Virus record (IMG/VR): IMGVR_UViG_3300032167_000022
DNA from: a virus
Direction: 5' to 3' (one strand)
Length of the DNA stretch: 25,767 nt
Notes under the pieces: generated by a model
The model's input: only the letters and a program-made list of their open reading frames with translations
What the model was told of the DNA's origin: nothing
The model's database searches: none
Made by a program: the position numbers and the translations under genes
Shown: piece by piece, positions 13,513 through 25,767 of the stretch
Layout of the letters: the number at the start of each line of letters is the position of its first letter
Numbering within the stretch: the stretch's first letter is position 1

Positions 13513-13536
13513 TTTCTTTACCTCCATGAAGGGCGA

Positions 13537-13944
13537 TTACTCGCCCTTCCCCGCAAACAGTTGAAACATTTTCATCATTTCAGTAAGCCTGTTGAATTCT
13601 TCGTGCCAGTTTTCCCAAGTGTCAGAATTACGATTGAAATAAATCAACGTGGTATCAGTATCTTTGAAAACATGGCTAAGAGCAGGTAATTCACCATCAA
13701 AAATAAAATCATCCAGCTCCATATAACTTCCATCTTCGTAATTATCTTCTTTTACAAGAATATAATATACATCATCGGATTCAAAATGCTCGTCATTAGT
13801 GTCAAGAAGATGTCCATTGATATCATAACAGGAGAAAGGTTCAAACACCTGCTTAATGTGGAGTTCTTCTTCATACTGTACGCAGTCAAATTCATCTTCA
13901 AACTGCGTGCCATCTTCTGCGATAAAATACATTACTTTTTCCAT
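13537..13944 (-). CDS. hypothetical acidic protein
   Basis: 135 aa ORF; its TAA stop sits in the loop of hairpin gaagggcga-ttac-tcgcccttc. Confidence 0.75.
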   Translation of the reverse strand: MEKVMYFIAEDGTQFEDEFDCVQYEEELHIKQVFEPFSCYDINGHLLDTNDEHFESDDVYYILVKEDNYEDGSYMELDDFIFDGELPALSHVFKDTDTTLIYFNRNSDTWENWHEEFNRLTEMMKMFQLFAGKGE

Positions 13945-13988
13945 TTTATTTTACTCTCTTTCTCCCCCCCTCTCTGGGGGGTACTATT

Positions 13989-14017
13989 ATTATACCATAC
14001 TTTGCGCGATTTGTCAA
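13989..14017 (-). promoter_or_regulatory. promoter cassette TTGACA-17-TGgTATAAT with 5' leader hairpin
   Basis: tgtcaa at 14012-14017 and attata at 13989-13994, then cca. Leader cccccccagagagggggg (reverse complement of 13958-13978). Confidence 0.75.
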
Positions 14018-14023
14018 GGGGTT

Positions 14024-14251
14024 TTATAAAAGTTTTTCAAGTTTTTTTGTGTATGCTTCATAGTTTGCTTCAAGGAACAAATATTCAATACCAAGATACT
14101 GGCACAGAGTAGTCGCTCCAAGCATTCGCTGTTTTGCGTTATCTACGATTTCAAGGGGCGTGTAAAGATTGCGTTCAAGCGCTCTTTCTGCGTCTTTTAC
14201 TTCCTGCTCAAAGTATTCAATCAACTTTTCGCTGATTACAAGTGTATTCAT
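14024..14251 (-). CDS. hypothetical protein
   Basis: SD GGAGGAAT before the ATG at 14251 (MNTLVISEKLIEYFEQEVK...). The track's longer version starts from an alternative start inside the upstream gene. Confidence 0.6.
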   Translation of the reverse strand: MNTLVISEKLIEYFEQEVKDAERALERNLYTPLEIVDNAKQRMLGATTLCQYLGIEYLFLEANYEAYTKKLEKLL

Positions 14252-14252
14252 T

Positions 14253-14450
14253 TTATTTATTCCTCCATGCGTCTTTAGAATGTTCTTCAATGCGTCCATC
14301 TGCGCGATACCATTTAATGTAAGTGAAGTAAGTAGTTTCAAATACAATGCCATCAACCGCAGGAAGGGCAGACTTGATACAGAAATTTTTTCCTTTATGT
14401 ACTTTTACTCTTGCGGTAGCTTCTAAAAGGTCGCTCATCCACATATCCAT
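14253..14450 (-). CDS. hypothetical protein
   Basis: 65 aa ORF, first after the promoter at 14491; RBS AGAAAGAGAG. Confidence 0.55.
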   Translation of the reverse strand: MDMWMSDLLEATARVKVHKGKNFCIKSALPAVDGIVFETTYFTYIKWYRADGRIEEHSKDAWRNK

Positions 14451-14490
14451 TTTATTTGCTCTCTTTCTGTTGGTTCTTTACTGTATATAT

Positions 14491-14519
14491 ATTATATCAT
14501 ATTTTTATAAAAATGTCAA
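14491..14519 (-). promoter_or_regulatory. promoter cassette TTGACA-17-TGaTATAAT
   Basis: tgtcaa at 14514-14519 and attata at 14491-14496, then tca. Confidence 0.7.
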
Positions 14520-14620
14520 TAGATATTCTTGTTTATTTACAAAATGTTCATAATTGCGGGATTTGTGCGGTTTGTACAAAAATGTTAAAAAAATTTCTGA
14601 AAATTTGTATAGATTACCAC

Positions 14621-14657
14621 TTGACAAAATAACGCCCGTGGCCTCCGGTCGCGGGCG
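14621..14657 (-). terminator. rho-independent terminator
   Basis: Hairpin cgcccgtggcctccggtcgcgggcg; the reverse complement is followed by ttattttgtc. Confidence 0.6.
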
Positions 14658-14714
14658 TTTGAACAAATCAAGTATATTTTGTAAATAAATTATGAACACA
14701 GCATTTTCGTCATT

Positions 14715-14751
14715 ATGCACAAAAGAAAATCCCTCTACATCAGTAGAGGGA
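14715..14751 (-). terminator. rho-independent terminator overlapping the stop of the 14735 gene
   Basis: Hairpin atccctctac-atca-gtagagggat; the reverse complement is followed by tttcttttgtg. The TAG stop lies in the stem. Confidence 0.65.
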
Positions 14752-15133
14752 TTGTATAAGTTTTGCGGATGGTAATTTCTACCTGTGGTGGAATTTCATG
14801 GAGAACAAAGCGGTCGTTCCGCACATATTCACCAATTCCCATTTCCTGCCACTTTTGGCGGTTTCTGTCCTCAAAACGCAGAGTATTATATTTTGAAAGG
14901 GGCAGCTTCCATAAATAGGTAAATTTGCCATCTGGCGGCATTGTGTGTTCAGGGCTTTTCCTATAATTGCGCGTGTGCTCTGCCTGTCTGCGCTTTAGGT
15001 CGTTAGTTGTTCCAATCTTTAGAACAAAATTTTTGTCGGTATCGTGGTAAAAACCCACATAAAGAAACTCTTTTTCTGCCATTTTTGCATCTTTTTGACT
15101 AAAATTTAAGTGAAAAGTGGGAAAAATTCCCAC
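14735..15133 (-). CDS. GIY-YIG-like nuclease domain protein
   Basis: EFLYVGFYHD...FVLKIGTTNDLKRRQAEH matches the GIY-YIG core (KIG.T.....RR...H). It ends in TAG; if TAG is sense, a 14-codon extension runs to the next TAA. Confidence 0.7.
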   Translation of the reverse strand: MGIFPTFHLNFSQKDAKMAEKEFLYVGFYHDTDKNFVLKIGTTNDLKRRQAEHTRNYRKSPEHTMPPDGKFTYLWKLPLSKYNTLRFEDRNRQKWQEMGIGEYVRNDRFVLHEIPPQVEITIRKTYTIPLLM

Positions 15134-15139
15134 TTTTCT

Positions 15140-15553
15140 TTACTTTTTGGGCTTTCGCTTCTGAACAAGCGTCAATTCAAAGGCATCTTCACCAATTTTG
15201 AACGCAATTTGCCGTTCTTTGTTGGTAATTTCCACATCTTCGGTCGCAAACTGACTGTTTTTTGTCAAAAACTCCGCCAATTCTGCGATTATTCCGCCCT
15301 TTGTGGGATTTGCCTTGCGCTCACGCTGGGAGAAATTGTAAACAGTAGGCTTGCGGTCGCGGCAGTTAGCCATACGCATCGCTTCCTTCTCTGTCTCCTT
15401 GTCAAGGTCGTACGCCAGCCTGTCATTAGCGGAAGCCTTCTCAACTTCCTTGTCATAGGACAAAACCTCAAGAGCTTCTTCTTCGGTACAGCGCAAGCCC
15501 TCTTGAATTCGCTTGACTTGCGCTTTGTCGGCTCGGGTCAGTTCCATCTTCAT
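15140..15553 (-). CDS. hypothetical protein (module partner B; paralog of 19305..19661)
   Basis: RBS AAAGAGGTG. Its C-terminal half is similar to the 19305 gene product. Confidence 0.75.
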   Translation of the reverse strand: MKMELTRADKAQVKRIQEGLRCTEEEALEVLSYDKEVEKASANDRLAYDLDKETEKEAMRMANCRDRKPTVYNFSQRERKANPTKGGIIAELAEFLTKNSQFATEDVEITNKERQIAFKIGEDAFELTLVQKRKPKK

Positions 15554-15572
15554 CACCTCTTTTGGTTAGGCG

Positions 15573-15594
15573 TGGCAGAGGATTAAACCTCTGC
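15573..15594 (-). other. conserved inter-cistronic RNA hairpin enclosing the stop codon (ggcagagg-tttaa-tcctctgcc)
   Basis: Seen directly. The counterpart at 19679-19700 has a different stem and the same loop. Confidence 0.6.
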
Positions 15595-15981
15595 CAGCTT
15601 GAAGTAGGAAACGCGCTTTTCAATCACCTTTTCCATCTTGCCATCTTCTACCAGCTGACGGACAAGCGCAGTGATTCTCTGCTGGGACAGTCCAGCGCAT
15701 TCGGGAACATTCTTGATGAAGTCAGTAACGGTGTGCTGACCGCCATCATTTGCGAGGTAGTCAAGCATTGCCTGCTTCAGCGCATCGTTTGCTTCCTTCT
15801 TTTCCATCTGCTTGCCAGACGGCTTAGCGTTCTTACGAGCCAGTAGGTCAAGCTCATTTTCAATGAATTCAACGAGCGTGGGGTTAGATGCTACAGAGGG
15901 GATAGCGAGGAGGGCGTTGAAGTGGTCACGCTTGGTGAGCTTCTTTGCGGTAGCGTTGAGAGTAGAATTAGTGTTAGCCAT
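15583..15981 (-). CDS. winged-helix-like DNA-binding protein (paralog family A, member 2)
   Basis: 132 aa ORF; a close paralog of 19693..20082 (for example TVTDFIKNVPECAGLSQQRITALVRQLVEDGKMEKV). Leader ccatggtatcaatcctttcagc is shared. Confidence 0.8.
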   Translation of the reverse strand: MANTNSTLNATAKKLTKRDHFNALLAIPSVASNPTLVEFIENELDLLARKNAKPSGKQMEKKEANDALKQAMLDYLANDGGQHTVTDFIKNVPECAGLSQQRITALVRQLVEDGKMEKVIEKRVSYFKLAEV

Positions 15982-16061
15982 GGTATCAATCCTTTCAGCT
16001 GTTTAGGTTGCCAACCTTTTAATTTGTTTGCCGTGGTAGGTTTCCCTCACCCGGTATATAT

Positions 16062-16090
16062 ATTATACCATACTTTATGGTATTTGTCAA
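16062..16090 (-). promoter_or_regulatory. promoter cassette P1 of a tandem triple (TTGACA-17-TGgTATAAT)
   Basis: tgtcaa at 16085-16090 and attata at 16062-16067, then cca. UP-like ttgaaaaacttttcaaaaacc upstream. Confidence 0.75.
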
Positions 16091-16223
16091 GGGGTTTTTG
16101 AAAAGTTTTTCAAAAATTTTTTGCGATACTATCAAGATTTGAAGTCAATTTATCGCATTTTGGACTTCACTTGATGAGGAGATTTTTTACGAGGTTTTAC
16201 TCACCCTCGCCCCTGACATATAT

Positions 16224-16252
16224 ATTATACCATACTTTGAGCGATTTGTCAA
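16224..16252 (-). promoter_or_regulatory. promoter cassette P2 of the tandem triple
   Basis: tgtcaa at 16247-16252 and attata at 16224-16229. No ORF between it and P1. Confidence 0.75.
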
Positions 16253-16330
16253 GGGGTTTTTGAAAAGTTTTTCAAATTTTTTTGAGTGGCTTTCGGCGTC
16301 CCCGCGCATCCTTTTGTTTGGTACATATAT

Positions 16331-16359
16331 ATTATACCACACAATCACGTTTTTGTCAA
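16331..16359 (-). promoter_or_regulatory. promoter cassette P3 of the tandem triple
   Basis: tgtcaa at 16354-16359 and attata at 16331-16336, then cca. Confidence 0.7.
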
Positions 16360-16632
16360 GAGGTTTTTCAAAATTTCTCAAAAAATTTTTTCAATATCCA
16401 AGAACAAGTCAGATTGTCAATTTTTGGTAATGGTATAATATGTGAACGAGTCTATGTTCATTTGTTAATTTTTTATTACGGGAAAACGGCTAATTCACTT
16501 GATTGTTAATAAAATGTTTACAATTTTTTTATACGATATCTCTTGACAAAATTTCGCCCGTGACCTCCGGCCGCGGGCGACTCAAAAGTCAAGTGTTTTT
16601 TATAAATAATTTGTAAATAAATTATGAATGCC

Positions 16633-16668
16633 AAAAGTAAAAGAAAGAGAGGGGCTTGCGCCCTCTCC
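16633..16668 (-). terminator. rho-independent terminator
   Basis: Hairpin gagaggg-gcttgcg-ccctctc; the reverse complement is followed by tttcttttactttt. Confidence 0.6.
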
Positions 16669-16671
16669 TTA

Positions 16672-16905
16672 TTAAAATTCAAGAATCGGAATATCATCTT
16701 CCGCCGCATACACGCCGATAATTTCTTCACCATTATGAAGTTCACAGCGTGCCAGCAGTCTGTTTGTGATAATTTCTTTTGCTTCGGAATAATCTTCATC
16801 TTCTCCAAAAGTGGTAGGGTCTTTATGGATTTCATGAAGTCTTTCAAAAACTTCTTCATTTACATCCATTTCAATCGTGCGATAAAGTGTAACAGCAACT
16901 TTCAT
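16672..16905 (-). CDS. hypothetical acidic protein
   Basis: 77 aa ORF downstream of the promoter at 16948; TAA stop. Confidence 0.7.
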   Translation of the reverse strand: MKVAVTLYRTIEMDVNEEVFERLHEIHKDPTTFGEDEDYSEAKEIITNRLLARCELHNGEEIIGVYAAEDDIPILEF

Positions 16906-16947
16906 TTTATTTTACCTCTTTCTCCCCCCTTTATTGGGGGTACTATT

Positions 16948-16976
16948 ATTATATCACATTTCTTCGGATTTGTCAA
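16948..16976 (-). promoter_or_regulatory. promoter cassette TTGACA-17-TGaTATAAT with leader hairpin
   Basis: tgtcaa at 16971-16976 and attata at 16948-16953. Leader cccccaataaagggggga. Confidence 0.75.
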
Positions 16977-16982
16977 GGGGTT

Positions 16983-17240
16983 TTACAAAATTTCTACATT
17001 TTCCCACCAATCTATAAGTTTTACTTCTGTATAATAAGTATCCCACGATTCTTTTTTCTTTTTATCCCATTCTTCTTTTGCTTTAATAAATTTTTCCTGC
17101 ATATCTGTTTCGCTGGTGTAAGCACCCGTATAAAAAATTGTCTCTTTTGTCCAGTTGCCACGAGAGCCTTGTCCACCATCAACATAACAAGCGGGAACAT
17201 AAATTTTTGCCATTTTCATTTGCTTTACAATTCTTGTCAT
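16983..17240 (-). CDS. hypothetical protein
   Basis: 85 aa ORF; its stop overlaps the UP region of the next promoter. Confidence 0.7.
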   Translation of the reverse strand: MTRIVKQMKMAKIYVPACYVDGGQGSRGNWTKETIFYTGAYTSETDMQEKFIKAKEEWDKKKKESWDTYYTEVKLIDWWENVEIL

Positions 17241-17287
17241 TTTATTTTACCTCTCTCTTTTAGTGCCCCCTGTATTGGGGTACTATT

Positions 17288-17316
17288 ATTATACCACACT
17301 TTTGCTTATTTGTCAA
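17288..17316 (-). promoter_or_regulatory. promoter cassette TTGACA-17-TGgTATAAT with leader hairpin
   Basis: tgtcaa at 17311-17316 and attata at 17288-17293. Confidence 0.75.
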
Positions 17317-17333
17317 GGGATTTAGTAAAATTT

Positions 17334-17657
17334 TTATTCATTAAAAATATATTTCATTGTTTCATTTACCAAATCTTCATCATCATAAATAAATGCATAA
17401 CCATCTGCTGTACAAGCAAAAATAACTGCTTCATCTGCTTTACAATATGGTTTAACAATTTCATCCAGTAAATCACACAATTTATCAAAAGTTTTTCTAC
17501 GTGTCACAACATCTGTTTCTTTATAATGTTTATTTATATATATTGATTTATCAATAATCTGTTTGAAATCATTATTGTTTGTTTCAATTTTAATGATGCG
17601 ATGTCCAGTATCTTCTTCATCCATTTTACGTTTTGCTAAAATAATACCAAGTTTCAT
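17334..17657 (-). CDS. hypothetical protein
   Basis: 107 aa ORF. Confidence 0.7.
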   Translation of the reverse strand: MKLGIILAKRKMDEEDTGHRIIKIETNNNDFKQIIDKSIYINKHYKETDVVTRRKTFDKLCDLLDEIVKPYCKADEAVIFACTADGYAFIYDDEDLVNETMKYIFNE

Positions 17658-17699
17658 TTTGTTTTATTCCTTTCTATCCCCTGTATCGGGGATGTATAT

Positions 17700-17728
17700 A
17701 TTATACCACACTTTTTTGAATTTGTCAA
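17700..17728 (-). promoter_or_regulatory. promoter cassette TTGACA-17-TGgTATAAT with leader hairpin ccccgatacagggg
   Basis: tgtcaa at 17723-17728 and attata at 17700-17705. Confidence 0.75.
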
Positions 17729-17747
17729 TAGGTTTTGCGAAAGTTTT

Positions 17748-18221
17748 TTAAAGAATTTTTGTTTCGCTCACAAAATACTTTGCTTTGTTGGCTTCAAGCA
17801 GTCCTTTTACAATAAGGCTTTGCGCTTGCGTTTCTGCGTAAATGTTGAAAATGGTATATTTACCAATGTTGGGAATATAATTACAAGAAATTCCATTTTC
17901 TCTTAAGTCATTATAAAGGCTTTCGGTGTAAGGCTCACACACAGATGCTTCAATCTTCCAGAGTTTATCTTTACGCGCCTTTTCCTCTACAAACTTAATA
18001 ATCCATACGCAGATGAAATTTGCGATGGCAGTAATTGCCATATTCACCAAAATGCCTACGGTGCCTTGCGCGGTCAGCATGACAATCAGAGGATAGAAAC
18101 CATAACAAACCGCATTCATCACAGCGGACAGCCATTTACCGCTTTTAATGGTGGTAATGGCGCGGATAGTGGAAAGTGATACGTTAATTACAGTAGCGAT
18201 TGCAAAAATTAAAATATTCAT
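17748..18221 (-). CDS. membrane protein (about 3 TM helices) with C-terminal soluble domain
   Basis: Hydrophobic N-terminal 100 aa (MNILIFAIATVINVSL...ITAIANFICVWIIKF) followed by a polar domain. Confidence 0.75.
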   Translation of the reverse strand: MNILIFAIATVINVSLSTIRAITTIKSGKWLSAVMNAVCYGFYPLIVMLTAQGTVGILVNMAITAIANFICVWIIKFVEEKARKDKLWKIEASVCEPYTESLYNDLRENGISCNYIPNIGKYTIFNIYAETQAQSLIVKGLLEANKAKYFVSETKIL

Positions 18222-18227
18222 TTTTTT

Positions 18228-18464
18228 TTATCCCTCCGATTCAATTACAATGTGCGTTTTTACTGGAGTTATAGGGCTATCTTCATCACAAGCCCACAGT
18301 TGACCAGTTAAAAGCACTACAGCATTAATAGATTCATAATCAAAAGATTCAATATTTTTTATTTTCATATTTAAATCGCCATCACAGTCAATGAAGCATT
18401 CACCGACTTTAATGTCTTTAATTGTTACCTCTTTGTCCTTATTTCTCATGTCCTCAACTCTCAT
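18228..18464 (-). CDS. hypothetical protein
   Basis: 78 aa ORF. Confidence 0.7.
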   Translation of the reverse strand: MRVEDMRNKDKEVTIKDIKVGECFIDCDGDLNMKIKNIESFDYESINAVVLLTGQLWACDEDSPITPVKTHIVIESEG

Positions 18465-18506
18465 TTGTTTTACCTCTTTCTACCCTCTCTCTTGGAGGGT
18501 ATATAT

Positions 18507-18535
18507 ATTATACCACATCCAAGAGAGAAAGTCAA
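18507..18535 (-). promoter_or_regulatory. promoter cassette TTGACT-17-TGgTATAAT with leader hairpin
   Basis: agtcaa at 18530-18535 and attata at 18507-18512. Confidence 0.7.
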
Positions 18536-18554
18536 TGTATAATTTGTATTTATT

Positions 18555-18986
18555 TTATGAATTCTTTTTGAACGGGCACTGCGTTTCGCCTGCGTGGTCT
18601 TTCCACCAGTCTGCAAAATCTTCTGCAGTTAATACTTTCATCAAATCATTAATGGAAAGGTTATTAACTCTTTTACAGACCTTCTTGAAGCTAATAGGCT
18701 TCTTGAAATGCTTTTCATCATAATATTTGCCATAGCTATCCCAATCAGAACCCTGCACACGGATGTAAGGACTGCGCCGGAAAAAGGTATAATTTTCTTT
18801 GATACCGGGGAATCTGTCTACCTCTTCGCGCAGTTCCTCAAACGTGCGGCAGGTCGTGCGGAAAGTATCTTCAAAGGTTTTTGCTTCTTCGGGGGTGAGA
18901 TACTCATAATTGTAATCCCACACAAAAATTTCTTCCCATTCATCATCAAAGCGGACGTAATTCTTAACAGCGTAAATATTTTTCAT
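18555..18986 (-). CDS. hypothetical protein
   Basis: 143 aa ORF. Confidence 0.75.
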   Translation of the reverse strand: MKNIYAVKNYVRFDDEWEEIFVWDYNYEYLTPEEAKTFEDTFRTTCRTFEELREEVDRFPGIKENYTFFRRSPYIRVQGSDWDSYGKYYDEKHFKKPISFKKVCKRVNNLSINDLMKVLTAEDFADWWKDHAGETQCPFKKNS

Positions 18987-19031
18987 TGTTTTATCTCCTT
19001 TGCCTGTTGGCTCTTTGTTTTCTGTATATAT

Positions 19032-19060
19032 ATTATATCATATTATAATAAAAAAGTCAA
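19032..19060 (-). promoter_or_regulatory. promoter cassette TTGACT-17-TGaTATAAT
   Basis: agtcaa at 19055-19060 and attata at 19032-19037. Confidence 0.7.
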
Positions 19061-19162
19061 TAGGTTTTCTTTATTGTTTACAAAATGTTCATAATTGCGG
19101 GATTTGTATGAATTGACTAAAAACGCCCAAAAATTTTCTGAAAATTTGTATACATTACCTAT

Positions 19163-19200
19163 TGACAAAAAAAACGCGCGCCACCATCGGCGACGCGCGT
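19163..19200 (-). terminator. strong rho-independent terminator
   Basis: Hairpin acgcgcgccaccatcggcgacgcgcgt; the reverse complement is followed by ttttttttt. Confidence 0.75.
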
Positions 19201-19249
19201 TTGAACAAATCAAGTATATTTTGTAAACAATTTGTGAACTGGAAATTTT

Positions 19250-19295
19250 CGTCAAAATAAACAAAAATGCATATTACATTTGTAATATGCATTTT
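19250..19295 (-). terminator. rho-independent terminator (16-bp perfect inverted repeat)
   Basis: aaaatgcatattaca-tt-tgtaatatgcatttt; the reverse complement is followed by tgtttattttg. Confidence 0.7.
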
Positions 19296-19304
19296 GGAAA
19301 ATAT

Positions 19305-19661
19305 TTACTTTCGGGGAGCAGATAGAGTCAACTTGAATTTTCTACCATTGTAAAGAAACTCCATTTCACGTTCGGGATTGATAATGGTAAGATTTTCCAC
19401 TTTGTCAAAAATTGCCATTTCAATGCCTTTGATTAGTGCTTGCTTGTCGTTGTCGCTTTTGCGTTCCTTGGTGCTTGCTTTGCCGTATGCGTCAACGACT
19501 TTGCGCGGTGCTCGCCGCAATTCTTTACTTGCGTTCTTTTCTTCGGCGGTCTGCTCAAATAGTTTTTCGCCCTTGTCAATGCGCTTATCTGCGTCCATTA
19601 CGTCGGCGATTTCTTCATCTGTAAAGCCGAGCCGCCGCATTGCTTTTTCCTGTTCGCTCAT
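19305..19661 (-). CDS. hypothetical protein (module partner B; paralog of 15140..15553)
   Basis: 118 aa ORF with RBS GAGGGGGG. Confidence 0.75.
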   Translation of the reverse strand: MSEQEKAMRRLGFTDEEIADVMDADKRIDKGEKLFEQTAEEKNASKELRRAPRKVVDAYGKASTKERKSDNDKQALIKGIEMAIFDKVENLTIINPEREMEFLYNGRKFKLTLSAPRK

Positions 19662-19678
19662 GGATTACGTCCCCCCTC

Positions 19679-19700
19679 TTGGGGGAGGGGGATTAAACCC
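19679..19700 (-). other. conserved inter-cistronic RNA hairpin enclosing the stop codon (ggaggggg-tttaa-tccccctcc)
   Basis: Seen directly; a structural homolog of 15573-15594. Confidence 0.6.
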
Positions 19701-20082
19701 CCTCCGGAATGCGGAAGTAAGATACGCGCTTTACGATTACCTTTTCAAGCTTGCCATCTTCTACCATCTGGCGAACCAGTGCGGTAATCTTCTGCGGAGA
19801 AAGTCCAGCGCACGCAGGCACGTTCTTGATGAAGTCGGTAACAGTGTGCTGTTCGCCGCTCGCGGTTGCGAATTCAAGAATCGCCGCCTTAAGCCCCTGA
19901 TTTGCGATGTCCTTTTCAGTGAGCTTCTTGTTGTCGCTGTTGTTCTTGCGAGCCAGCAGGTCAAGTTCGTTGTTGATGAAATCAACGAGTGCGGGATTTG
20001 CGGCAACTTCGGGGAGCTGGAGCAGGGTGTTGAAGTGGTCGCGCTTAGTGAGCTTCTTGGAAGTAGAGTTAGTAGTAGCCAT
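19693..20082 (-). CDS. winged-helix-like DNA-binding protein (paralog family A, member 3)
   Basis: 129 aa ORF, highly similar to 15583..15981. Confidence 0.8.
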   Translation of the reverse strand: MATTNSTSKKLTKRDHFNTLLQLPEVAANPALVDFINNELDLLARKNNSDNKKLTEKDIANQGLKAAILEFATASGEQHTVTDFIKNVPACAGLSPQKITALVRQMVEDGKLEKVIVKRVSYFRIPEGV

Positions 20083-20166
20083 GGTATCAATCCTTTCAGC
20101 GTAGGTCGCTACCCATTATTTTTATTTTACCGATTGGAGGTCGTGCCCTCTTGCTTCGGTATATAT

Positions 20167-20195
20167 ATTATATCATACTTTGAGCGATTTGTCAA
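20167..20195 (-). promoter_or_regulatory. promoter cassette TTGACA-17-TGaTATAAT
   Basis: tgtcaa at 20190-20195 and attata at 20167-20172. Confidence 0.75.
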
Positions 20196-20226
20196 GGGGT
20201 TTTGCAAAAGTTTTTGAAAAATTTTT

Positions 20227-20333
20227 TGGAGGCAGTGGTAGGAGTTGAACCTACGTTTTCCAATGGCGAACGTTTCCATTTGTTGTATCTCAAGCCATCT
20301 TTATGGAAATAGAGCCGCTTCTATCTCACTGCC
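20227..20333 (-). tRNA. tRNA-like element, atypical length (104 nt plus encoded CCA)
   Basis: The minus strand reads GGCAGTG...atag-aagcggct-ctat...gtagg-TTCAACT-cctac-CACTGCC-t-CCA. It has a 7-bp acceptor stem, a D-arm with GG, and a canonical T-arm and loop. The anticodon region carries about 16 extra nt (a 23-nt loop between tccat and atgga), and no clean anticodon was identified. Confidence 0.4.
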
Positions 20334-20373
20334 ATATTATCGGGGAGGATTTGTTCCTCTCTTCTGTATATAT

Positions 20374-20402
20374 ATTATATCATACTTTTGCGGTTTTGTC
20401 AA
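20374..20402 (-). promoter_or_regulatory. promoter cassette TTGACA-17-TGaTATAAT driving the tRNA-like element
   Basis: tgtcaa at 20397-20402 and attata at 20374-20379. The tRNA-like 5' end lies about 35 nt downstream of the predicted transcription start. Confidence 0.75.
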
Positions 20403-20451
20403 GGGGTTTTGCGAAATTTCTTAAAGTTTTTTTTGCGGTAGTCATGGGGGA

Positions 20452-21156
20452 TTAATTCCCCCATAACTCTTTCTGCATTGCCTTGTGTTGTCTGAAACAG
20501 TACGCCATTATCTGCGCTTCAATTTCCACATCTTCAAGCCCTGTATGATTTTCAACAAAATCATTATTGCGGGAAATGAATCTGTAAAGATTTTCCGCTG
20601 TCATGGAAAGTCTGCCAGTTTTTGTCAGATAACCATGTTCTTCACAAAATGCGCGGTAGGTGGGCATCTTTCCGATTACACTTTGCGCCATCTTCATACT
20701 GTCCCAAATTGTAATTCCATAAGGGAGAAAATAGCGGTACTTGCTTTTTGTAGTCCAGCGCTCTGTGCTGTTTAGGCTGTTGTAGTCAAAACGGGCGTTA
20801 TGCGCGCAAATTGTATCAACTGCGAAATCTGCGATATCATTCAGCAGAGCCGAGCGCATTTGATAGGTATTAGCCACAATGCGCCTACCCGCTTCAATGT
20901 CTGCGAGATACTGCGGGATTTTATTTGCGTAGTATGCCGACTTCATCAGTTCAGCTTCATGGAAGAAAATATCAGAATTTACAAAACTCTTTTTGCGGTA
21001 GATGTTTCCATGCTTATCAGTTACCGCCCACCCAAGGTCATACACAAGTGTACTACTTGTGTCAAGCTGTCCTCTTTCATCGCGGAAGGTGTTTGCGGTT
21101 TCCGTGTCAAGCACGATAATGTAATGTCTGCGGCGGTCAATCTTTTCTGTGTTCAT
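20452..21156 (-). CDS. DEDDh-family 3'-5' exonuclease (DnaQ/epsilon-like)
   Basis: Exo I YIIVLDTETAN, Exo II CAHNARFDYNSL, Exo III HTGLEDVEIEAQIM. 234 aa. The TAA stop sits in the loop of hairpin atggggg-attaatt-cccccat. Confidence 0.8.
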   Translation of the reverse strand: MNTEKIDRRRHYIIVLDTETANTFRDERGQLDTSSTLVYDLGWAVTDKHGNIYRKKSFVNSDIFFHEAELMKSAYYANKIPQYLADIEAGRRIVANTYQMRSALLNDIADFAVDTICAHNARFDYNSLNSTERWTTKSKYRYFLPYGITIWDSMKMAQSVIGKMPTYRAFCEEHGYLTKTGRLSMTAENLYRFISRNNDFVENHTGLEDVEIEAQIMAYCFRQHKAMQKELWGN

Positions 21157-21198
21157 TGGTCTATCTCTCTTTCTACCCCCTGTATCGGGGGTATATAT

Positions 21199-21227
21199 AT
21201 TATATCATACTTTGAGCGATTTGTCAA
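21199..21227 (-). promoter_or_regulatory. promoter cassette TTGACA-17-TGaTATAAT with leader hairpin cccccgatacaggggg
   Basis: tgtcaa at 21222-21227 and attata at 21199-21204. Confidence 0.75.
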
Positions 21228-21256
21228 GGGGTTTTGCGAAAGTTTTTTAAAGATTT

Positions 21257-21460
21257 TTAGCGGGGGAAAAAGCAAGCACTTCTGTCATTCCATACTACTA
21301 TGTATTTGTCGCCATTGACTTCTTCTACTCTGTGAAGGGTGGCTTCGTAGAAACCGCATTCCATGAGCGCGTTATACTCATCACGGGCATCATTGAAATT
21401 ATTGAATTGGGTTACTACGCCCTCAATTTCTACCTCAAAATAAATTTTAGTGTTAGTCAT
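21257..21460 (-). CDS. hypothetical protein
   Basis: The true start is the ATG at 21460 (RBS AGAGAGG; MTNTKIYFEVEIEG...). The track's longer version translates the promoter. Confidence 0.65.
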   Translation of the reverse strand: MTNTKIYFEVEIEGVVTQFNNFNDARDEYNALMECGFYEATLHRVEEVNGDKYIVVWNDRSACFFPR

Positions 21461-21494
21461 TTGTGATGTACCTCTCTTTCTTTTCTGTATATAT

Positions 21495-21523
21495 ATTATA
21501 CCACATATCAAGCCAAAAGTCAA
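21495..21523 (-). promoter_or_regulatory. promoter cassette TTGACT-17-TGgTATAAT
   Basis: agtcaa at 21518-21523 and attata at 21495-21500. Confidence 0.7.
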
Positions 21524-21632
21524 TAGGTTTTTGAAAAAAATCTTTCGTCAAATTGCACAAACATTTTGGGAAAATTTCCCTTCACAATTTGTTTACAAAA
21601 TGCTTACAAAAAAGTATTGAAATTCACAATTT

Positions 21633-21670
21633 GTTCAAAAACCGGCCGCTTGGAGCGCGGGCGGCCGGCC
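21633..21670 (-). terminator. rho-independent terminator
   Basis: Hairpin ccggccgc-ttggagcgcgg-gcggccgg; the reverse complement is followed by tttttg. Confidence 0.6.
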
Positions 21671-21767
21671 CAAAAGTCAAGTCAAAATTTGTAAATAAAA
21701 TGAAAACAAAATATGAATTGAAATGAAAAAATGAATCCAAAAAATGGAAACAAAAATTGAAATTGAA

Positions 21768-21796
21768 ATAAAAAACCGCCCAAAGGCGGCTTTTAT
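21768..21796. terminator. bidirectional rho-independent terminator
   Basis: aaaaaaccgcccaaaggcggctttta. Confidence 0.75.
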
Positions 21797-22069
21797 TTAA
21801 TAGGTGATACGAATATTATTCAATCTATCTGTATATGATTCTGGACCATCTTCTTCAAACAGTCTTGTTCCGTTAGCAACTCTTCCACGTTGAACGCAGA
21901 AGAAAATACCATCTTTTCTTGCCCGAGAAATTAAATCATTAAATTCTTCCATATAATTATCGCGTGTAATTTCTTTTTTTCTTCTTTCAATGATAAGTTT
22001 AAGCTCTTCGGCGGTGACTTCCATCAGAACAACATTCTCTTCAACTTCATTAAATCTACCAGTAGGCAT
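21797..22069 (-). CDS. hypothetical protein
   Basis: 90 aa ORF. Confidence 0.7.
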   Translation of the reverse strand: MPTGRFNEVEENVVLMEVTAEELKLIIERRKKEITRDNYMEEFNDLISRARKDGIFFCVQRGRVANGTRLFEEDGPESYTDRLNNIRITY

Positions 22070-22124
22070 TTTGTTTTCTCTCTTTCTTCCGTTCTTTTGG
22101 GCTTCCGGATTTCCTCTGTATATA

Positions 22125-22153
22125 TATTATATCATACTTTGCGGTGTTTGTCA
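22125..22153 (-). promoter_or_regulatory. promoter cassette TTGACA-17-TGaTATAAT
   Basis: tgtcaa at 22148-22153 and attata at 22125-22130. Leader cttccgttcttttgggcttccggatttcc is shared with the promoter at 24362. Confidence 0.75.
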
Positions 22154-22186
22154 AGAGGTTTTGCGAAATTTTTTGAAAAAAATTTT

Positions 22187-22378
22187 TTATGCCAAGAATT
22201 CACCAGTTTGAATATAATGCCAGATAGCTTCTATGCAAGTATGCTCAAAATCATCTATGCGTTTTTCATCATGGCATTTATCATTTAATGGACATTCTTC
22301 ACATTTAAAAATTGGGATATCAATAGATTTTGGGTCAATAATTGCTTGAAAACGTTTAAACTGAATATTTTCTTCCAT
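22187..22378 (-). CDS. small CxxC protein
   Basis: 63 aa with RBS AGGAAAG; contains CEECPLNDKCHDEKRIDDFEHTC. Confidence 0.55.
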   Translation of the reverse strand: MEENIQFKRFQAIIDPKSIDIPIFKCEECPLNDKCHDEKRIDDFEHTCIEAIWHYIQTGEFLA

Positions 22379-22395
22379 GCTATTTCTTTCCTGTA

Positions 22396-22893
22396 TTAAA
22401 ACTTTTTTGAATTTACCTGTATGCGCTCAATCCAAGAGCGCATACAGTAATTCAAGAATATCAATCGCGGTCGGGTCAAACGCTTCGCCCATGTGCCAGC
22501 CCTTGCGAACCTTTTCATTGTCATCAAAGAGCAAGCGGTTTCGTCCTCTTCAAGGTATCTGCGGATGCTGTCAGCCTTAGTCGCGCCATACTTTACACCG
22601 TGGAAGTGAGTGTAAGGAATGCCGAGGGCTTCAAGCCATTCTCGCTTCGCTTCGCGTACCGCTTCATCATACTCGGGAGTGCTTTCCTTTGACAGCCAAG
22701 TGATAATGCGAATTTCAACGCCGTTATCAATCAGCGTATTCAGGATGCAAGCAAGCTCCTCTTCATCCCACATACATTCTGCTTCCCGATACGGGGCAGG
22801 GTCAAACGCACGAAGCTGTTCAAGCCAGTTGGGCACGTTGTAAAGGTCTGCGAGGGTGCCGTCCATGTCAAAGCAAATCATCTTAGGTAACAT
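22396..22893 (-). pseudogene. HAD-superfamily 5'(3')-deoxyribonucleotidase-like gene with apparent -1 frameshift near 22540-22560
   Basis: The start is MLPKMICFDMDGTLADLYNVPNWLEQL (HAD motif I, DxDGT). After ...RRYLEED, the homologous continuation RNRLLFDDNEKVRKGWHMGEAFDP (motif IV, DD) is in another frame, which is closed by a TGA just upstream. The track's M at 22971 translates the promoter. Confidence 0.55.
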
Positions 22894-22942
22894 AGTTTTT
22901 ACTTCCTTTCTCTTGGAACCTCTTGGGTTCCTCTGTATATAT

Positions 22943-22971
22943 ATTATATCACATTTCCGGTCGTTTGTCAA
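22943..22971 (-). promoter_or_regulatory. promoter cassette TTGACA-17-TGaTATAAT
   Basis: tgtcaa at 22966-22971 and attata at 22943-22948. Confidence 0.75.
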
Positions 22972-23015
22972 GAGGTTTTGCGAAATTTTTTAAATTTTTT
23001 TTCGCAAGGTAGAGG

Positions 23016-23192
23016 TCACTTGACCTCTACCACATCCACGATTTCCCATTCTTTGGCAGGATAATCGGTCTCGTTATCAAGGCGATACATACATTCTTTC
23101 TTCGCTTCACCTTTATTACTCGCTTTAACGAAGTATTCATCCCATCCAAATTTCTTGTGATAAACAGAGCAAGCATAAGTTTTCATCTCCAT
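23016..23192 (-). CDS. small hypothetical protein (58 aa)
   Basis: RBS AAAGAAAGGA. Reads MEMKTYACSVYHKKFGWDEYFVKASNKGEAKKECMYRLDNETDYPAKEWEIVDVVEVK; TGA stop inside the palindrome ggtagaggtca-ct-tgacctctacc. Confidence 0.45.
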   Translation of the reverse strand: MEMKTYACSVYHKKFGWDEYFVKASNKGEAKKECMYRLDNETDYPAKEWEIVDVVEVK

Positions 23193-23238
23193 GTGTCCTT
23201 TCTTTGGTCGCCTATTGGCTTTCCTTTACTGTATATAT

Positions 23239-23267
23239 ATTATATCATATTTTAATAAAAATGTCAA
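23239..23267 (-). promoter_or_regulatory. promoter cassette TTGACA-17-TGaTATAAT
   Basis: tgtcaa at 23262-23267 and attata at 23239-23244. Confidence 0.7.
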
Positions 23268-23384
23268 TGAATATTCTGTAAATAGATTGTGAAGTTTCTG
23301 TGAACTGGCCTATTGGTAGTTTCAGGAAATGGGAAACATATGCGAATTATCCAGTTTTTGCCATAAAAAATGCGGAATTAGGTG

Positions 23385-23435
23385 GCCATTAGAAATACCG
23401 CTCGTTTCGGGTGGTAAACGCCCGGAAACGAGCGG
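23385..23435 (-). terminator. rho-independent terminator (11-bp stem)
   Basis: ccgctcgtttc...gaaacgagcgg; the reverse complement is followed by tatttctaat. Confidence 0.55.
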
Positions 23436-23454
23436 GCGCCCACAATTGTAAATT

Positions 23455-23545
23455 TTTTAAAAAAATTTTATGAACAAATTGTGAACAAAATATGAACAAA
23501 AATGTATGAACAAATTGTGAACAGAATATGAACAAATTGTTACCA
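23455..23545. repeat. six tandem copies of (T)ATGAACAAA(T)
   Basis: tatgaacaaattgtgaacaaaatatgaacaaaaatgtatgaacaaattgtgaacagaatatgaacaaattg. Confidence 0.65.
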
Positions 23546-23591
23546 AAGCGGCTGGATATTTTTTCCACCCAGCCGCTTTATTTTACATCTG

Positions 23592-23957
23592 TCACATAGG
23601 GATTCTATCAACCGCATCCGCCTGCGCGATTGCTTTTTCAATCAGTGTATCAAGCGCTTTTTCAATTCTCGCAAGCTCTGCTTTGTTCTTGACTATATAA
23701 TGGTCATTCCCTTTACGTTCAACATCAAAGTTGTTTTCAAGAATCAAATGCGCGTTAGCCTCAATTACTCTGCGATATGCGATATTATCGTCGCACTCCC
23801 AATTTTTCATGATTAGGTCTTTGTCTCTGTAAAATACCTCTCTTGCTCTTCGGATAACGTTATTTGTTTCGCCGATTTTAATGACGTAGGTGCCGCGCTT
23901 TTTTTCTTGTAAAGCAAGCACCGTTTTTTCGTTCATCGCATAGTAAACACAGCTCAT
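23592..23957 (-). CDS. GIY-YIG-like nuclease domain protein
   Basis: VYYAM...GTYVIKIGETNNVIRRAREV fits the GIY/YIG plus Arg pattern. 121 aa, TGA stop. Confidence 0.65.
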   Translation of the reverse strand: MSCVYYAMNEKTVLALQEKKRGTYVIKIGETNNVIRRAREVFYRDKDLIMKNWECDDNIAYRRVIEANAHLILENNFDVERKGNDHYIVKNKAELARIEKALDTLIEKAIAQADAVDRIPM

Positions 23958-24003
23958 TTTATTTTACCTCTTTCTTTATTTTTTGTTGGAGTCAATCCCC
24001 GCT

Positions 24004-24123
24004 TTACGCGGGGATTTTTCTGACCAGCTTGCCGTGCTTCATTTCTTCCACCTTAAGCTCGCGCTTGCTGAATCCCTTCACTGCTGTTCTGTAGCCGTCT
24101 GCGAAAATAAACCACCAAAACAT
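24004..24123 (-). CDS. small hydrophobic/basic protein (39 aa)
   Basis: SD AAGGGGGAT. Reads MFWWFIFADGYRTAVKGFSKRELKVEEMKHGKLVRKIPA; its TAA sits in the loop of hairpin atccccgc-tttac-gcggggat. Confidence 0.4.
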   Translation of the reverse strand: MFWWFIFADGYRTAVKGFSKRELKVEEMKHGKLVRKIPA

Positions 24124-24143
24124 CTTTTTTATCCCCCTTTTAT

Positions 24144-24303
24144 TATTCGTGTTCAGCTCTGTCAACGTACTTAACAACTTCAACGGGTACGTCACACATA
24201 ATTGCGATTTCTTCAATGCCGTACAAGTAAACATCGCCGACGCATTCATCAAGCAGGTTTGCAATTTCTACATACTTTTCAAAAGTGATGCTTTCAATAG
24301 TCA
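24144..24303 (-). CDS. small hypothetical protein (53 aa)
   Basis: The ATG at 24303 follows leader ...agagagattaaaaaa. Reads MTIESITFEKYVEIANLLDECVGDVYLYGIEEIAIMCDVPVEVVKYVDRAEHE. Confidence 0.55.
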
Positions 24304-24361
24304 TTTTTTTAATCTCTCTTTCTTCCGTTCTTTGTGGCTTCCGGATTTCCTTTACTGTATC

Positions 24362-24390
24362 TATTATACCACACAATTGCGATTCTGTCA
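24362..24390 (-). promoter_or_regulatory. promoter cassette TTGACA-17-TGgTATAAT
   Basis: tgtcaa at 24385-24390 and attata at 24362-24367. Confidence 0.7.
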
Positions 24391-24508
24391 AGGGGGTTTT
24401 TGAAATTTCTTTAAAAAAAATGTATTTTGTACGTTTTGCACAAAAATGTATAAATATTCATTTTTGTATAATTTGACTAAAAATGTATATTATACATTTT
24501 TGTGCAAT

Positions 24509-24538
24509 TTGACGAACGAACATTTGTTCGCGTATAGT
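24509..24538 (+). promoter_or_regulatory. plus-strand promoter TTGACG-18-TATAGT with a perfect Firmicutes LexA (Cheo) box CGAACATTTGTTCG in the spacer
   Basis: ttgacg at 24509-24514, cgaacatttgttcg at 24517-24530, tatagt at 24533-24538. Confidence 0.5.
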
Positions 24539-24696
24539 TTTGCGATTTTCTGCTTTTACCATTTTCTTCCAGCACTTACAAATTTTCCCATTTACCAGAA
24601 AATGGTAAAAAGACCGTTAAATTCTTAACAAGCGCATCCAGTTTCTTCCATTACCAAATGGTGGATGAATTTCCAAAATTTACCGGGTAGGGAAAA

Positions 24697-24960
24697 CGCG
24701 AAAACTGTTTTTTCCAAAAACTGGAATTTCGTGAAAATTTTAACAATCGCGCGGCCGCCCCTTATTTTAACACTTTATCACTTTACCATACTAAAGCGCG
24801 ACTTCGGGGCCCCGCGACACTTGTCGTACAAAACGGAAGGCTGGCATTGTGAAATTTTTCACAAACACGAAAATCGTCAAAAAACTGTTTTTCACTTTCA
24901 CGCTTTACCATACTAAAGTGTGTGAAATTTTTAACAATCGGCGGGCCGCAGGGGAGAGGG
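24697..24960. repeat. two diverged direct repeats (aaaactgtttttc..., ctttaccatactaaag, gtgaaatttttaacaatcg-GC hairpin)
   Basis: Shared blocks at 24697-24770 and 24870-24960, seen directly. Confidence 0.5.
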
Positions 24961-25270
24961 TTTGTTAACAAAAAATTTACAATTTAAAAATTTACAATTT
25001 GTTTACATTCGGGAGAATTTGTTCACAATTTATTTACAATTTATTTAAAAAAAAATATTGAAATTCACAGTTTGTTCACAAATTCGGGCCCTGGGGCCCG
25101 AGAACAGAGATAATTGTGAACAAATTGTAAATTTTTTGTTAACAATTCATAAATTGTTAACAAAAAATTTACAATTTGTTCACAATTTGTTCACATTCGG
25201 GAAATAAAAAGTTTACAATTTGTTCACAATTTGTTTACAAAAAATTCACAAATTGTTCACAATTTGTGAA
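24960..25270. repeat. dense array (more than 20 copies) of an 11-12-bp repeat ACAATTTGTTCACA / TTGTGAACAA with three TCACAttCGGG punctuations
   Basis: Examples: tttacaatttgtttacattcggg, aatttgttcacaatttatttacaattt, aattgtgaacaaattgtaaat, tttacaatttgttcacaatttgttcacattcggg, ttcacaaattgttcacaatttgtgaac. Confidence 0.7.
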
Positions 25271-25399
25271 CTCCGGCCGCTTGGAACGCGAGCGGCCGGC
25301 TCAAAATCAAGCATATTTTGTAAATAATTTGTAAATTAAAAATGAATTTTTTGTAAACAATTTATGAATTTTTTATTCATAGAAATTTTACAATTTGTT

Positions 25400-25442
25400 C
25401 ATAAATTAAAAATGGTAAATGCTGGAATTACCAGCATTTACC
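25400..25442 (-). terminator. rho-independent terminator with the stop codon in the loop (12-bp stem)
   Basis: ggtaaatgctgg-aatta-ccagcatttacc; the reverse complement is followed by atttttaatttat. Confidence 0.7.
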
Positions 25443-25634
25443 AATCTTTGCGATTAATTTTTTTTGGTAATCTCTACCATGCGCAAACACCCACTTGCTT
25501 TTGATTTTGTGATTTGTTTCATTATAAATATTAGTGCTTCTGATTGCGCTCTCAAGCCATCTGACATTGTTTGCCATAAGCACTTCACCAGTAGTAAGAT
25601 TGTAAGCGGCATGCGGTCTGTTGTTAGTAGTCAT
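25428..25634 (-). CDS. hypothetical protein
   Basis: The true start is the ATG at 25634 (RBS GGAAGT; MTTNNRPHAAYNLTTGEVL...). The track's longer form translates the promoter. Confidence 0.6.
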   Translation of the reverse strand: MTTNNRPHAAYNLTTGEVLMANNVRWLESAIRSTNIYNETNHKIKSKWVFAHGRDYQKKLIAKIGKCW

Positions 25635-25680
25635 TTTATTTACTTCCTTTCTGTGAGGGTTTCTCCCTCTCTCTGTATAT

Positions 25681-25709
25681 ATTATACCACACTTTTGGTT
25701 TTTTGTCAA
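25681..25709 (-). promoter_or_regulatory. promoter cassette TTGACA-17-TGgTATAAT
   Basis: tgtcaa at 25704-25709 and attata at 25681-25686. Confidence 0.7.
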
Positions 25710-25726
25710 TAGGTTTTTGAAAAGTT

Positions 25727-25764
<38 letters not shown>

Positions 25765-25767
25765 TGT

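Follow-up and report, generated by a model that had tools for sequence, protein, structure and literature searches.

What would read a dense field of short repeats beside the early genes of an uncultured, Clostridia-type phage? The IMG/VR virus record IMGVR_UViG_3300032167_000022 poses this question in its last intergenic region. Within the 25,767-nt stretch that we analysed (the window, to which all positions refer unless another contig is named), an array of about 25 copies of one short box occupies 24961-25400. A first-pass annotation took these repeats for a multimeric platform for a sequence-specific DNA-binding protein. That likeness has held up; the array is non-coding and consists of phased predicted sites. 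It is most likely a landing pad for a transcription factor, which is probably encoded by the host. We tentatively favor a multimeric, high-capacity binding platform for a host response regulator of the OmpR/PhoB type, a reading drawn from the box and its geometry.

An array of boxes with an 11-bp period

Using the strict box TT[C/T/A]ACA (reverse TGT[G/A/T]AA), we counted 28 matches in the array, 19 forward and 9 reverse. They represent about 25 distinct sites, since three palindromic TGTTAACA sites score on both strands. Box density reaches 63.6 per kb, 15 times the 4.2 per kb found in the rest of the window, and composition-matched shuffles gave at most 10 matches (means 1.8 and 3.1). These counts agree with the more than 20 repeats of 11-12 bp first noticed at 24960-25400. 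With 29 hits per 440 bp, compared to no more than 20 elsewhere, this set of one-turn-phased sites ranks first among all loci retrieved.

The boxes are strictly spaced. Same-strand neighbors lie 11 bp (n = 14), 22 bp (n = 8) or 33 bp (n = 6) apart, and the autocorrelation of the array has its maxima at lags 11, 22 and 33. The resulting 11.0-bp period is sharp, and it is visible by eye when the sequence is laid out in 11-base rows. Regular phasing had been anticipated and is present, but at this value rather than at 10.5 bp. The repeated unit also differs from the GAAC/GTTC half-site palindromes proposed at first: it is a head-to-tail hexamer, TT[C/T/A]A[C/T]A, recurring every 11 bp. Twelve of the strict matches are TTTACA, ten TTCACA and six TTAACA, and the unit consensus reads w-t-w-G-TT[T12/C10/A6]ACA-A-w-T, with G before the hexamer in 18 of 28 units and A after it in 25. 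TTGACA is absent; indeed, G never occurs at the third hexamer position. All of the roughly 28 early promoters of this phage use TTGAC[A/T], which indicates that boxes and -35 elements are kept distinct.

The array is built of four blocks of boxes in alternating orientation. Their runs are interrupted by two GC hairpins, where only one had been recognized, and by a CGGG punctuation (TCACAttCGGG or ACA(aa)TTCGGG) that was correctly spotted from the start and occurs three times, near 25005, 25078 and 25193. Block 1 (24961-25047, plus strand) holds 6-7 forward boxes in 11-bp registers (TTAACA, TTTACA twice, TTTACA, TTCACA, TTTACA) and one TTTACATTCGGGAG punctuation. An A/T tract at 25045-25060 precedes a unit of two forward boxes, TTCACAgtttgTTCACA (25065-25081, plus strand), which abuts GC hairpin 1 (CGGGCCC-tggg-GGCCCG, 25084-25101; -8.2 kcal/mol as DNA, no T-run on either strand). 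Next comes a perfect 76-bp palindrome of 36+4+36 nt at 25112-25187 (-36.5 kcal/mol, z = -11.4), which comprises three reverse and three forward boxes. The longest run, block 3 (25158-25262, plus strand), strings nine forward boxes in one unbroken 11-bp register, with one unit replaced by TTCGGGAAATA. Orientation reverses at a 17-bp palindrome, GTTCACAATTTGTGAAC (25256-25272), followed by GC hairpin 2, CCGGCCGCT...AGCGGCCGG (25273-25299, -13.9 kcal/mol). Block 4 (25313-25393) contributes 3-4 reverse boxes (TGTAAA) at 25319, 25330 and 25352 and a forward box at 25388. On the right, the array is bounded by the intrinsic terminator (25413-25443, minus strand) that belongs to the upstream early gene.

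The array is real and not an artefact of assembly at a contig boundary, a concern raised with the original observation. Its region is 99.97-100% identical in at least seven independent assemblies, and two contigs (90,957 and 40,982 bp) run through it and extend past the end of the window. Other contigs break about 330 bp beyond the array at a 33-nt poly-T (25725-25757), which is a homopolymer effect rather than a terminus. Megablast and blastn searches of the window and of the region found no similarity in GenBank phages, and searching the literature for the literal repeat strings returned unrelated primers only. A coding function was rejected: the open reading frames (ORFs) at 24665-24916 (plus) and 24783-24971 (minus) are translated repeats, and no gene is called there in any assembly. 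We also rejected an array of clustered regularly interspaced short palindromic repeats (CRISPR), which would have 24-40-nt repeats with unique spacers; the unit here is 11 bp, has no spacers and occurs in both orientations. On both points the first reading was sound.

Boxes in register with early promoters

The right half of the window, together with 5.4 kb beyond it, is the early-gene region. Across positions 12000-25767 and L012 1-5500 we found about 20 promoters (28 in the longer contig), all on the minus strand and all near-perfect sigma-A promoters (TTGAC[A/T]-17-TGnTATAAT). Each carries a conserved A/T-rich upstream element, aaattttcaaaaaccta, and drives a cassette in which a short, structured leader is followed by one or two small genes and then a terminator, an arrangement like that of the SPO1 host-takeover module.

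Boxes sit at fixed distances from these promoters. For the extended contig and for L160 and L206, which are relatives at the protein level, forward pairs end 9 nt (n = 7), 20 nt (n = 4), 21 nt (n = 1) or 31 nt (n = 1) upstream of the -35, counts that include paralogous promoter modules within one phage. The distance follows a 9+11n register. A different layout is found in L194, a 122.7-kb contig with an exonuclease 45% identical, where forward pairs lie 76 nt upstream (four cases) and a composite module of two boxes, CCGTTATAACGG and two inverted boxes precedes at least 9 of 14 promoters.

The box and its register extend well beyond this group. An exact 18-mer, GTTCACAATTTGTTCACA, occurs at 52 viral loci in IMG/VR, belonging to 22 sequence clusters, and at these loci the distance from the last tandem box to an extended -10 is far more commonly 9, 20 or 31-32 nt than other values. 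Two of the clusters are phi29-like podophages, with a protein-primed-type DNA polymerase, a capsid protein and a packaging ATPase; in one of them, boxes lie 12-37 nt from both genome ends, within inverted terminal repeats that are 170 nt or longer. Querying GenBank phages with four units retrieved 12 records, 10 of which are Clostridium phages (phi29-like, of C. perfringens and C. symbiosum). The boxes of such phi29-like Clostridium phages come in sets of 3-4, ending 9 or 20 bp upstream of promoters with an extended -10 and no -35. The last box ends 9 nt before the -10 in C. symbiosum phage CS229P2 and in L179 and L158, and one period further out in the L002, L011 and L177 clusters; the four boxes of L179 span about -60 to -22. 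The complete genome of CS229P2 has a single site, consisting of three boxes, TTTACAatttgTTCATActttgTTCACA, then 9 nt, then TGtTATAAT. It lies at the promoter that separates the first seven tiny genes from the unit leading to the DNA polymerase gene.

A fixed 9+11n register points to a transcription factor touching RNA polymerase, and away from the nucleoid, partition or packaging proteins initially offered as binders. A further reading would take the array for overlapping weak sigma-A promoters in a cluster, or for a trap of RNA polymerase, driving short structured RNAs that end at the GC hairpins. Each TTnACAAT unit does hold -35-like and -10-like hexamers, units two periods apart would give a 17-bp spacer, TTCACA-18-TACAAT is reported at 25190-25219, and GC hairpins follow box runs here as well as in L237 and L005. 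However, the hairpins have no T-runs on either strand, and avoidance of G at the third hexamer position is the opposite of what promoter selection would produce. Rfam at gathering thresholds and a tRNA search gave no match in the region; at E<=1, Rfam returned only miRNA-precursor models on the palindrome and a sub-threshold csRNA, the best suggestive match, at 34 bits against a threshold of 57. We consider this reading very improbable. No -10 or -35 follows any block of the array in the 9+11n register, and given the hairpins without T-runs and the lack of an RNA family, the array is not itself one of these promoters. With about 25 sites and no promoter in register, it would instead act as a sink or a hub.

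Relatives of the phage at 33-45% protein identity retain boxes and arrays, with GTTCATA as the dominant box. Array size ranges from 2 to about 20 boxes: around 20 with GC-rich interruptions in L206, 13 plus a GC hairpin in L237, and 2-4 in L239 and L240, with composite modules in L194 and at least four perfect units before the contig ends in L209. The feature is therefore conserved and undergoes rapid expansion and contraction, as expected of tandem sites under dosage-type selection.

Further box sites lie elsewhere in the window. Those listed by the first-pass annotation as carrying the same core (23455-23545, 19200-19245, 14660-14700 and 21580-21640) are real, and sites at 23293-23309 and 12736-12776 add to them. 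A 7-box mini-array (GTTCAYA) at 23462-23538 on the minus strand is followed by a GC-rich structured segment. Between the last of three boxes, TTCACAgaaacTTCACAatctaTTTACA (23293-23309, minus strand), and the -35 of the downstream promoter at 23267 there are 9 nt. The pair TTCACAatttgTTTACA (21581-21597, plus strand) lies upstream of the promoter at 21523, with a further TTCACA at 21623. Another pair, at 19222-19238 on the minus strand, has a paralogous pair at 14680-14696, and for two further pairs, at 19077-19093 and 14536-14552, the distance to the -35 of the downstream promoter (at 19060 and 14519, respectively) is 16 nt. On the plus strand, four boxes with 11-12-bp spacing (one TTCATA and three TTTACA, 12736-12776) mark one edge of a GC-rich non-coding segment of about 450 bp, and TTTACA and TTCACA boxes at about 13040-13075 mark the opposite edge. 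The structured-looking GC-rich segments bracketed by box runs, at 23290-23440 and 12640-13090, have no Rfam match and may encode small RNAs. A second array of about 14 boxes is found 3.7 kb further upstream, at 2040-2200 of L012.

Candidate binding proteins

A single protein could account for both the promoter sites and the array. It would read TT[C/T/A]A[C/T]A (fuller unit tGTTCAyAAwT) head to tail every 11 bp, neighboring monomers stacking cooperatively along one face of the DNA. At promoters it would act through 2-4 boxes, the last ending 9+11n bp before the -35 or -10; its targets would be the early promoters of the phage clade and the -35-less extended -10 promoters of phi29-like Clostridium phages. 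We propose that the binder is a host response regulator of the OmpR/PhoB family and that the array, with about 25 sites, would be a sink titrating it off host and phage promoters. Alternatively, the array might be a hub that concentrates the factor beside the early-gene region.

The closest likeness is to the published PHO box of Bacillus subtilis, defined as TT(A/T/C)ACA in head-to-tail direct repeats with 11-bp periodicity and at least four copies. All 28 strict array matches have this hexamer, and the repeats have this spacing (11, 22 and 33 bp, with a nine-box run in one register), with inverted blocks also present. The hexamer, the head-to-tail 11-bp repeats and the copy number of four or more are thus shared with the sites of B. 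subtilis PhoP~P and with the E. coli pho box of PhoB. In the phi29-like Clostridium phages, though not in the array, position would agree as well: boxes run from about -60 to -22 at -35-less promoters, the last one 9 nt before the -10. PhoB/PhoP-dependent promoters have boxes on the coding strand at about -60 to -20, no -35, and some 10 bp between the boxes and the -10. Because box, period, copy number and position (-60 to -22) all agree with the PHO box, a PhoP-like regulator would be the leading candidate. There are differences. The array has about 25 boxes in both orientations, none of them in register with a promoter; variants of the form TTCATA occur here, as does a conserved G before the box, and some boxes lie upstream of promoters with a perfect -35. 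The array is likened to the PHO box by box sequence and geometry. Other sites of the family are built similarly: KdpE recognizes TTTATA-N5-TTTACA, WalR TGTWAH-N5-TGTWAH, and Streptomyces PhoP GTTCACC units of 11 nt.

A host factor is favored by two observations. The phi29-like phages and the large-phage clade share boxes, but they have no protein in common at the level detectable by BLAST. In addition, none of the 59 ORFs of this phage contains an OmpR-type domain in Pfam. In one case, a metagenome-assembled genome (MAG) of Clostridia carries a pair of boxes placed 9 nt upstream of the -10 of an operon for an OmpR-family regulator and kinase, an arrangement that could fit autoregulation and to which we give low weight.

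Could the binder be encoded by the phage instead? The boxes would then be sites for an early protein that switches early promoters, and the array a timing sink or a nucleation centre for early-gene shut-off. Candidates would be, for the large-phage clade, one of its three winged-helix paralogs (1810-2247, 15583-15981 and 19693-20082 in the window) and, for phi29-like phages, small early proteins. Most early promoters of the clade are preceded by boxes, and the winged-helix family is multi-copy and conserved in L160, L185, L194 and L209 (292 homologs, all metagenomic). In CS229P2, any of the seven tiny genes before the box promoter could encode an activator, and phi29 p4 and p6 are phage-encoded precedents. 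The first-pass annotation had named the winged-helix paralogs among its possible binders, and structural modelling gives such a fold: a generic C-terminal winged helix (predicted local distance difference test score, pLDDT, 82.7) resembling DsrD, Z-alpha, ArsR and MarR. However, the fold matches are weak (E about 0.01) and not of OmpR type, and the family has no BLAST-detectable homolog in the phi29-like phages with identical boxes. The paralogs may be binders within this clade, but they cannot account for the boxes of phi29-like phages. One conserved host protein is an easier explanation for an exact 18-mer kept in 22 phage clusters, and a phage-encoded binder seems unlikely to us.

DnaA, the main rival, is the other host protein to be weighed. 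It would bind cooperatively to TTGTTCACA and variants of this 9-mer, which are arranged in opposed blocks with 2 bp between them; the array would titrate DnaA, shutting down host initiation, or would anchor or sense via DnaA. TTGTTCACA departs from TT(A/T)TNCACA solely by G at position 3, and the conserved TTG before TTCACA stretches the recognized unit to 9 nt. DnaA is universal, which would explain boxes common to unrelated phages. In a scan of bacterial sequences, 2 of 120 TTCACA-N5-TTCACA matches sit in DnaA-box clusters, one of them the dnaA-rpmH intergenic region of an Erysipelotrichaceae member with tandem TGTGAA pairs beside TTTTCCACA boxes. The low-affinity DnaA sites of E. coli oriC are likewise 9-mers 2 bp apart, in two opposed arrays. 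They share with the phage array the 11-bp period and an opposed layout permitting cooperative, filament-like filling; the phage array differs in lacking an anchoring consensus DnaA box and in its non-origin context.

Phage T5 offers a precedent for DnaA and DnaA-like boxes in pairs, and cooperative binding of host DnaA has been proposed for its box clusters. Davison's analysis of T5-like phages described, in the first-entering DNA, a large untranslated region rich in repeats and palindromes; its paired boxes include TTATTCACA and TTATTAACA. The array resembles this injection-stop (iss) region in being large, non-coding and rich in repeats, inverted repeats as well as palindromes, in lying in the early-gene region of a large lytic phage, and in its clustered boxes, of the TTATTCACA and TTATTAACA types among others, which a host DNA-binding protein is proposed to read. 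T5 differs in having 8 boxes, paired 3 bp apart in fixed inverted repeats, whereas the phage array has about 25 in 11-bp tandem runs, and most of these boxes break the DnaA consensus. The likeness comes from the sequence, not from terminal-repeat placement or two-step injection; a T5-like role in DNA entry may be envisaged.

Several observations argue against DnaA. None of the 28 array units is an exact TTWTNCACA, and about two-thirds of the array boxes (TTTACA, TTAACA), as well as the GTTCATA of relatives, break the DnaA-invariant positions 6 or 8. Canonical DnaA boxes show no overall enrichment near the motif (0.14 versus 0.09 per 800 bp). Moreover, activators that touch RNA polymerase, rather than DnaA, typically keep such a strict 9+11n register to -35 and -10 elements. 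We regard binding by DnaA as rather unlikely.

A role in replication could also take another form, with the boxes as iterons of an origin. An ori/enhancer pair, like P4 ori/crr, would be made up of the array with its A/T tracts and 76-bp palindrome together with the second array at a distance of 3.7 kb (L012 2040-2200), and auxiliary origin sites would be provided by the boxes that phi29-like phages have near their inverted terminal repeats. The repeats are iteron-like and in both orientations, with A/T tracts and a perfect palindrome at hand; the P4 alpha protein binds TGTTCACC iterons via a winged helix; two viral contigs (L202, L224) carry 11-bp TGTGAA iteron sets in a classical origin layout; and the boxes 12-37 nt from both phi29-like termini lie where protein-primed replication starts. 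Identical boxes in register with more than 10 promoters would, however, be unexpected for initiator iterons. Genes for an initiator, helicase or primase are missing next to the array, about 45 kb of sequence revealed no gene resembling an initiator, the GC skew does not switch locally where the array lies, and array size varies from 2 to 28 among relatives. An origin is an improbable reading.

Returning to the host response regulator, phi29 itself provides a parallel. It exploits the host response regulator Spo0A, which binds the 0A box TGTCGAA, at early promoters and near the replication termini. In the phi29-like Clostridia phages, too, boxes are found at promoters and 12-37 nt from the ends, within the inverted terminal repeats, but the box sequence is another one, Spo0A is not of the OmpR family, and we know of no large box arrays in phi29. 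For a sink, the models are titration clusters such as E. coli datA for DnaA and the iterons of P1 incA and F incC, in which tandem sites away from the site of action are proposed to buffer free protein. These share with the array many tandem copies of one predicted binding site. They serve chromosome or plasmid replication control; here, the same boxes also lie near the early-gene promoters of a lytic phage, and titration would be their proposed counterpart.

A number of points weigh against a PhoP-like host regulator. Since the hexamer is short, is rich in A and T and resembles the half-sites of many OmpR-family regulators (PhoP, WalR, ResD, KdpE, HssR), the assignment to PhoP is not specific. 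The early promoters match the consensus perfectly, in which case an activator should be needless, and there is no obvious reason for a lytic phage to couple its replication genes to a phosphate-starvation regulator. Paralogous modules of one phage swell the register counts. TTGTTCACA is one mismatch from a relaxed DnaA box, and 2 of 120 bacterial two-box matches fall in oriC-like regions. A bacterial scan with TTCACA-WWWWK-TTCACA-WWWWK-TT was too permissive to bring out a regulon, and no coherent set of downstream genes emerged among the matches listed, which come mostly from AT-rich Clostridia MAGs. A search of plasmids gave one intergenic 2-box site, in Vescimonas fastidiosa, out of register with its promoter. 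Finally, a phage-encoded binder may be too diverged for BLAST.

Other candidate binders were compared with the array and rejected. Its units are not GAAC-N4-GTTC, as LexA would require, though a true Cheo-type box lies nearby. The Rex operator (TTGTGAA-N4-TTCACAA) agrees in half-site and in 11-bp centre spacing, but the array repeats are direct and not inverted in the Rex order. Spo0A (TGTCGAA), parS (TGTTNCACGTGNAACA), CRP/FNR and TnrA, judged by their familiar consensus sequences, mismatch the array units in sequence or symmetry.

Surroundings of the array and wider meaning

To the right of the array lies an early cassette on the minus strand (25428-25709), with a consensus promoter at 25709-25681 and a 68-aa gene at 25428-25634; an exact-protein look-up with the 70-aa translation of 25428-25640 gave no match. 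To the left, the remainder of the roughly 1-kb non-coding gap (24400-24960, about 560 bp) reaches toward the next early promoter at 24391. It contains a duplicated module of about 120 bp (24665-24960) with the near-palindrome CTTTACCATACTAAAG, GATTGTTAAAAATTTCAC and GC-rich hairpins. This repeated module with CTTTACCATACTAAAG comes after each box array, and other copies lie at 2200-2450 and 3580-3660 of L012. The same gap holds a Gram-positive SOS (Cheo/LexA-type) box, CGAACATTTGTTCG, at 24517-24530. In a 150-kb phage contig (L005, 1340-1420), a 3-box element has two Cheo/LexA-type boxes, and also GC hairpins, on its flanks. Motifs of the TTGCACAAAAATGTATAA and TTTGTGCAAAACGTACAAA types are found in a 36-bp tandem repeat at 24425-24513. 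Many copies of a similar motif, TTTGTGCAAAATGTAGAA, surround the box element of that unrelated 150-kb contig (L005 1100-1660), and it is also found in L194 and L162. The motif of the 36-bp repeat could be a second shared cis-element.

Other features of the window concern the phage more generally. In-frame TAG codons, 7-8 per gene with no other stop, occur in ENA gene calls before the window start (L019 15621-18179), and the window gene at 906-1709 has one in-frame TAG. The phage appears to use TAG-recoded translation in non-early genes and the standard code in its early cassettes. Such recoding has been described for gut phages (bioRxiv 10.1101/2021.08.26.457843). An ORF-free stretch at about 9700-11200 has 23-25% GC and a very strong G-over-C skew (+0.3 to +0.5); L239 and L240 have an equivalent pyrimidine-rich non-coding stretch of about 900 bp past the last early gene, near the contig ends. 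CodY-type boxes, AATTTTCTGAAAATT (a perfect match to AATTTTCWGAAAATT) and AAATTTCTGAAAATT, lie at 19132-19146 and 14591-14605 in paralogous intergenic regions that are 82% identical. The string (A/T)TGTTCACAAAATGTTCACA, with an identical spacer, was retrieved from several phyla (Bacillaceae, Clostridia, Desulfomonilaceae, Alistipes; L033, L034, L038, L041, L060, L062, L071, L076, L078) and may be a mobile-element end or a conserved operator.

The wider picture that these phages suggest is possible, if rather unlikely. Gut and rumen Clostridia phages, from 13-kb phi29-like genomes to TAG-recoded ones above 90 kb, would share one box read by one host regulator, whether a response regulator or DnaA. 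Large phages would have amplified it into decoy arrays of 13-28 sites that soak up the factor as a takeover or timing device, and phi29-like phages would also recruit it to their replication termini. The array may be seen as a variant of kinds already known, namely response-regulator box clusters, titration arrays and the T5 iss region. Whatever the binder turns out to be, promoters and early regions of metagenomic phages can be annotated with the 9+11n rule and the box consensus. If the proposal is true, a large set of uncultured Clostridia phages would be seen to share one defined regulatory box, and the idea would be directly testable in cultured Clostridium symbiosum DA229 with phage CS229P2, whose single 3-box promoter is clean. 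The proposal would also provide a clear natural case of a virus amplifying a host transcription-factor site into a titration array, and a bacterial parallel to adenovirus, with host factors at the ends of a genome replicated by protein priming.

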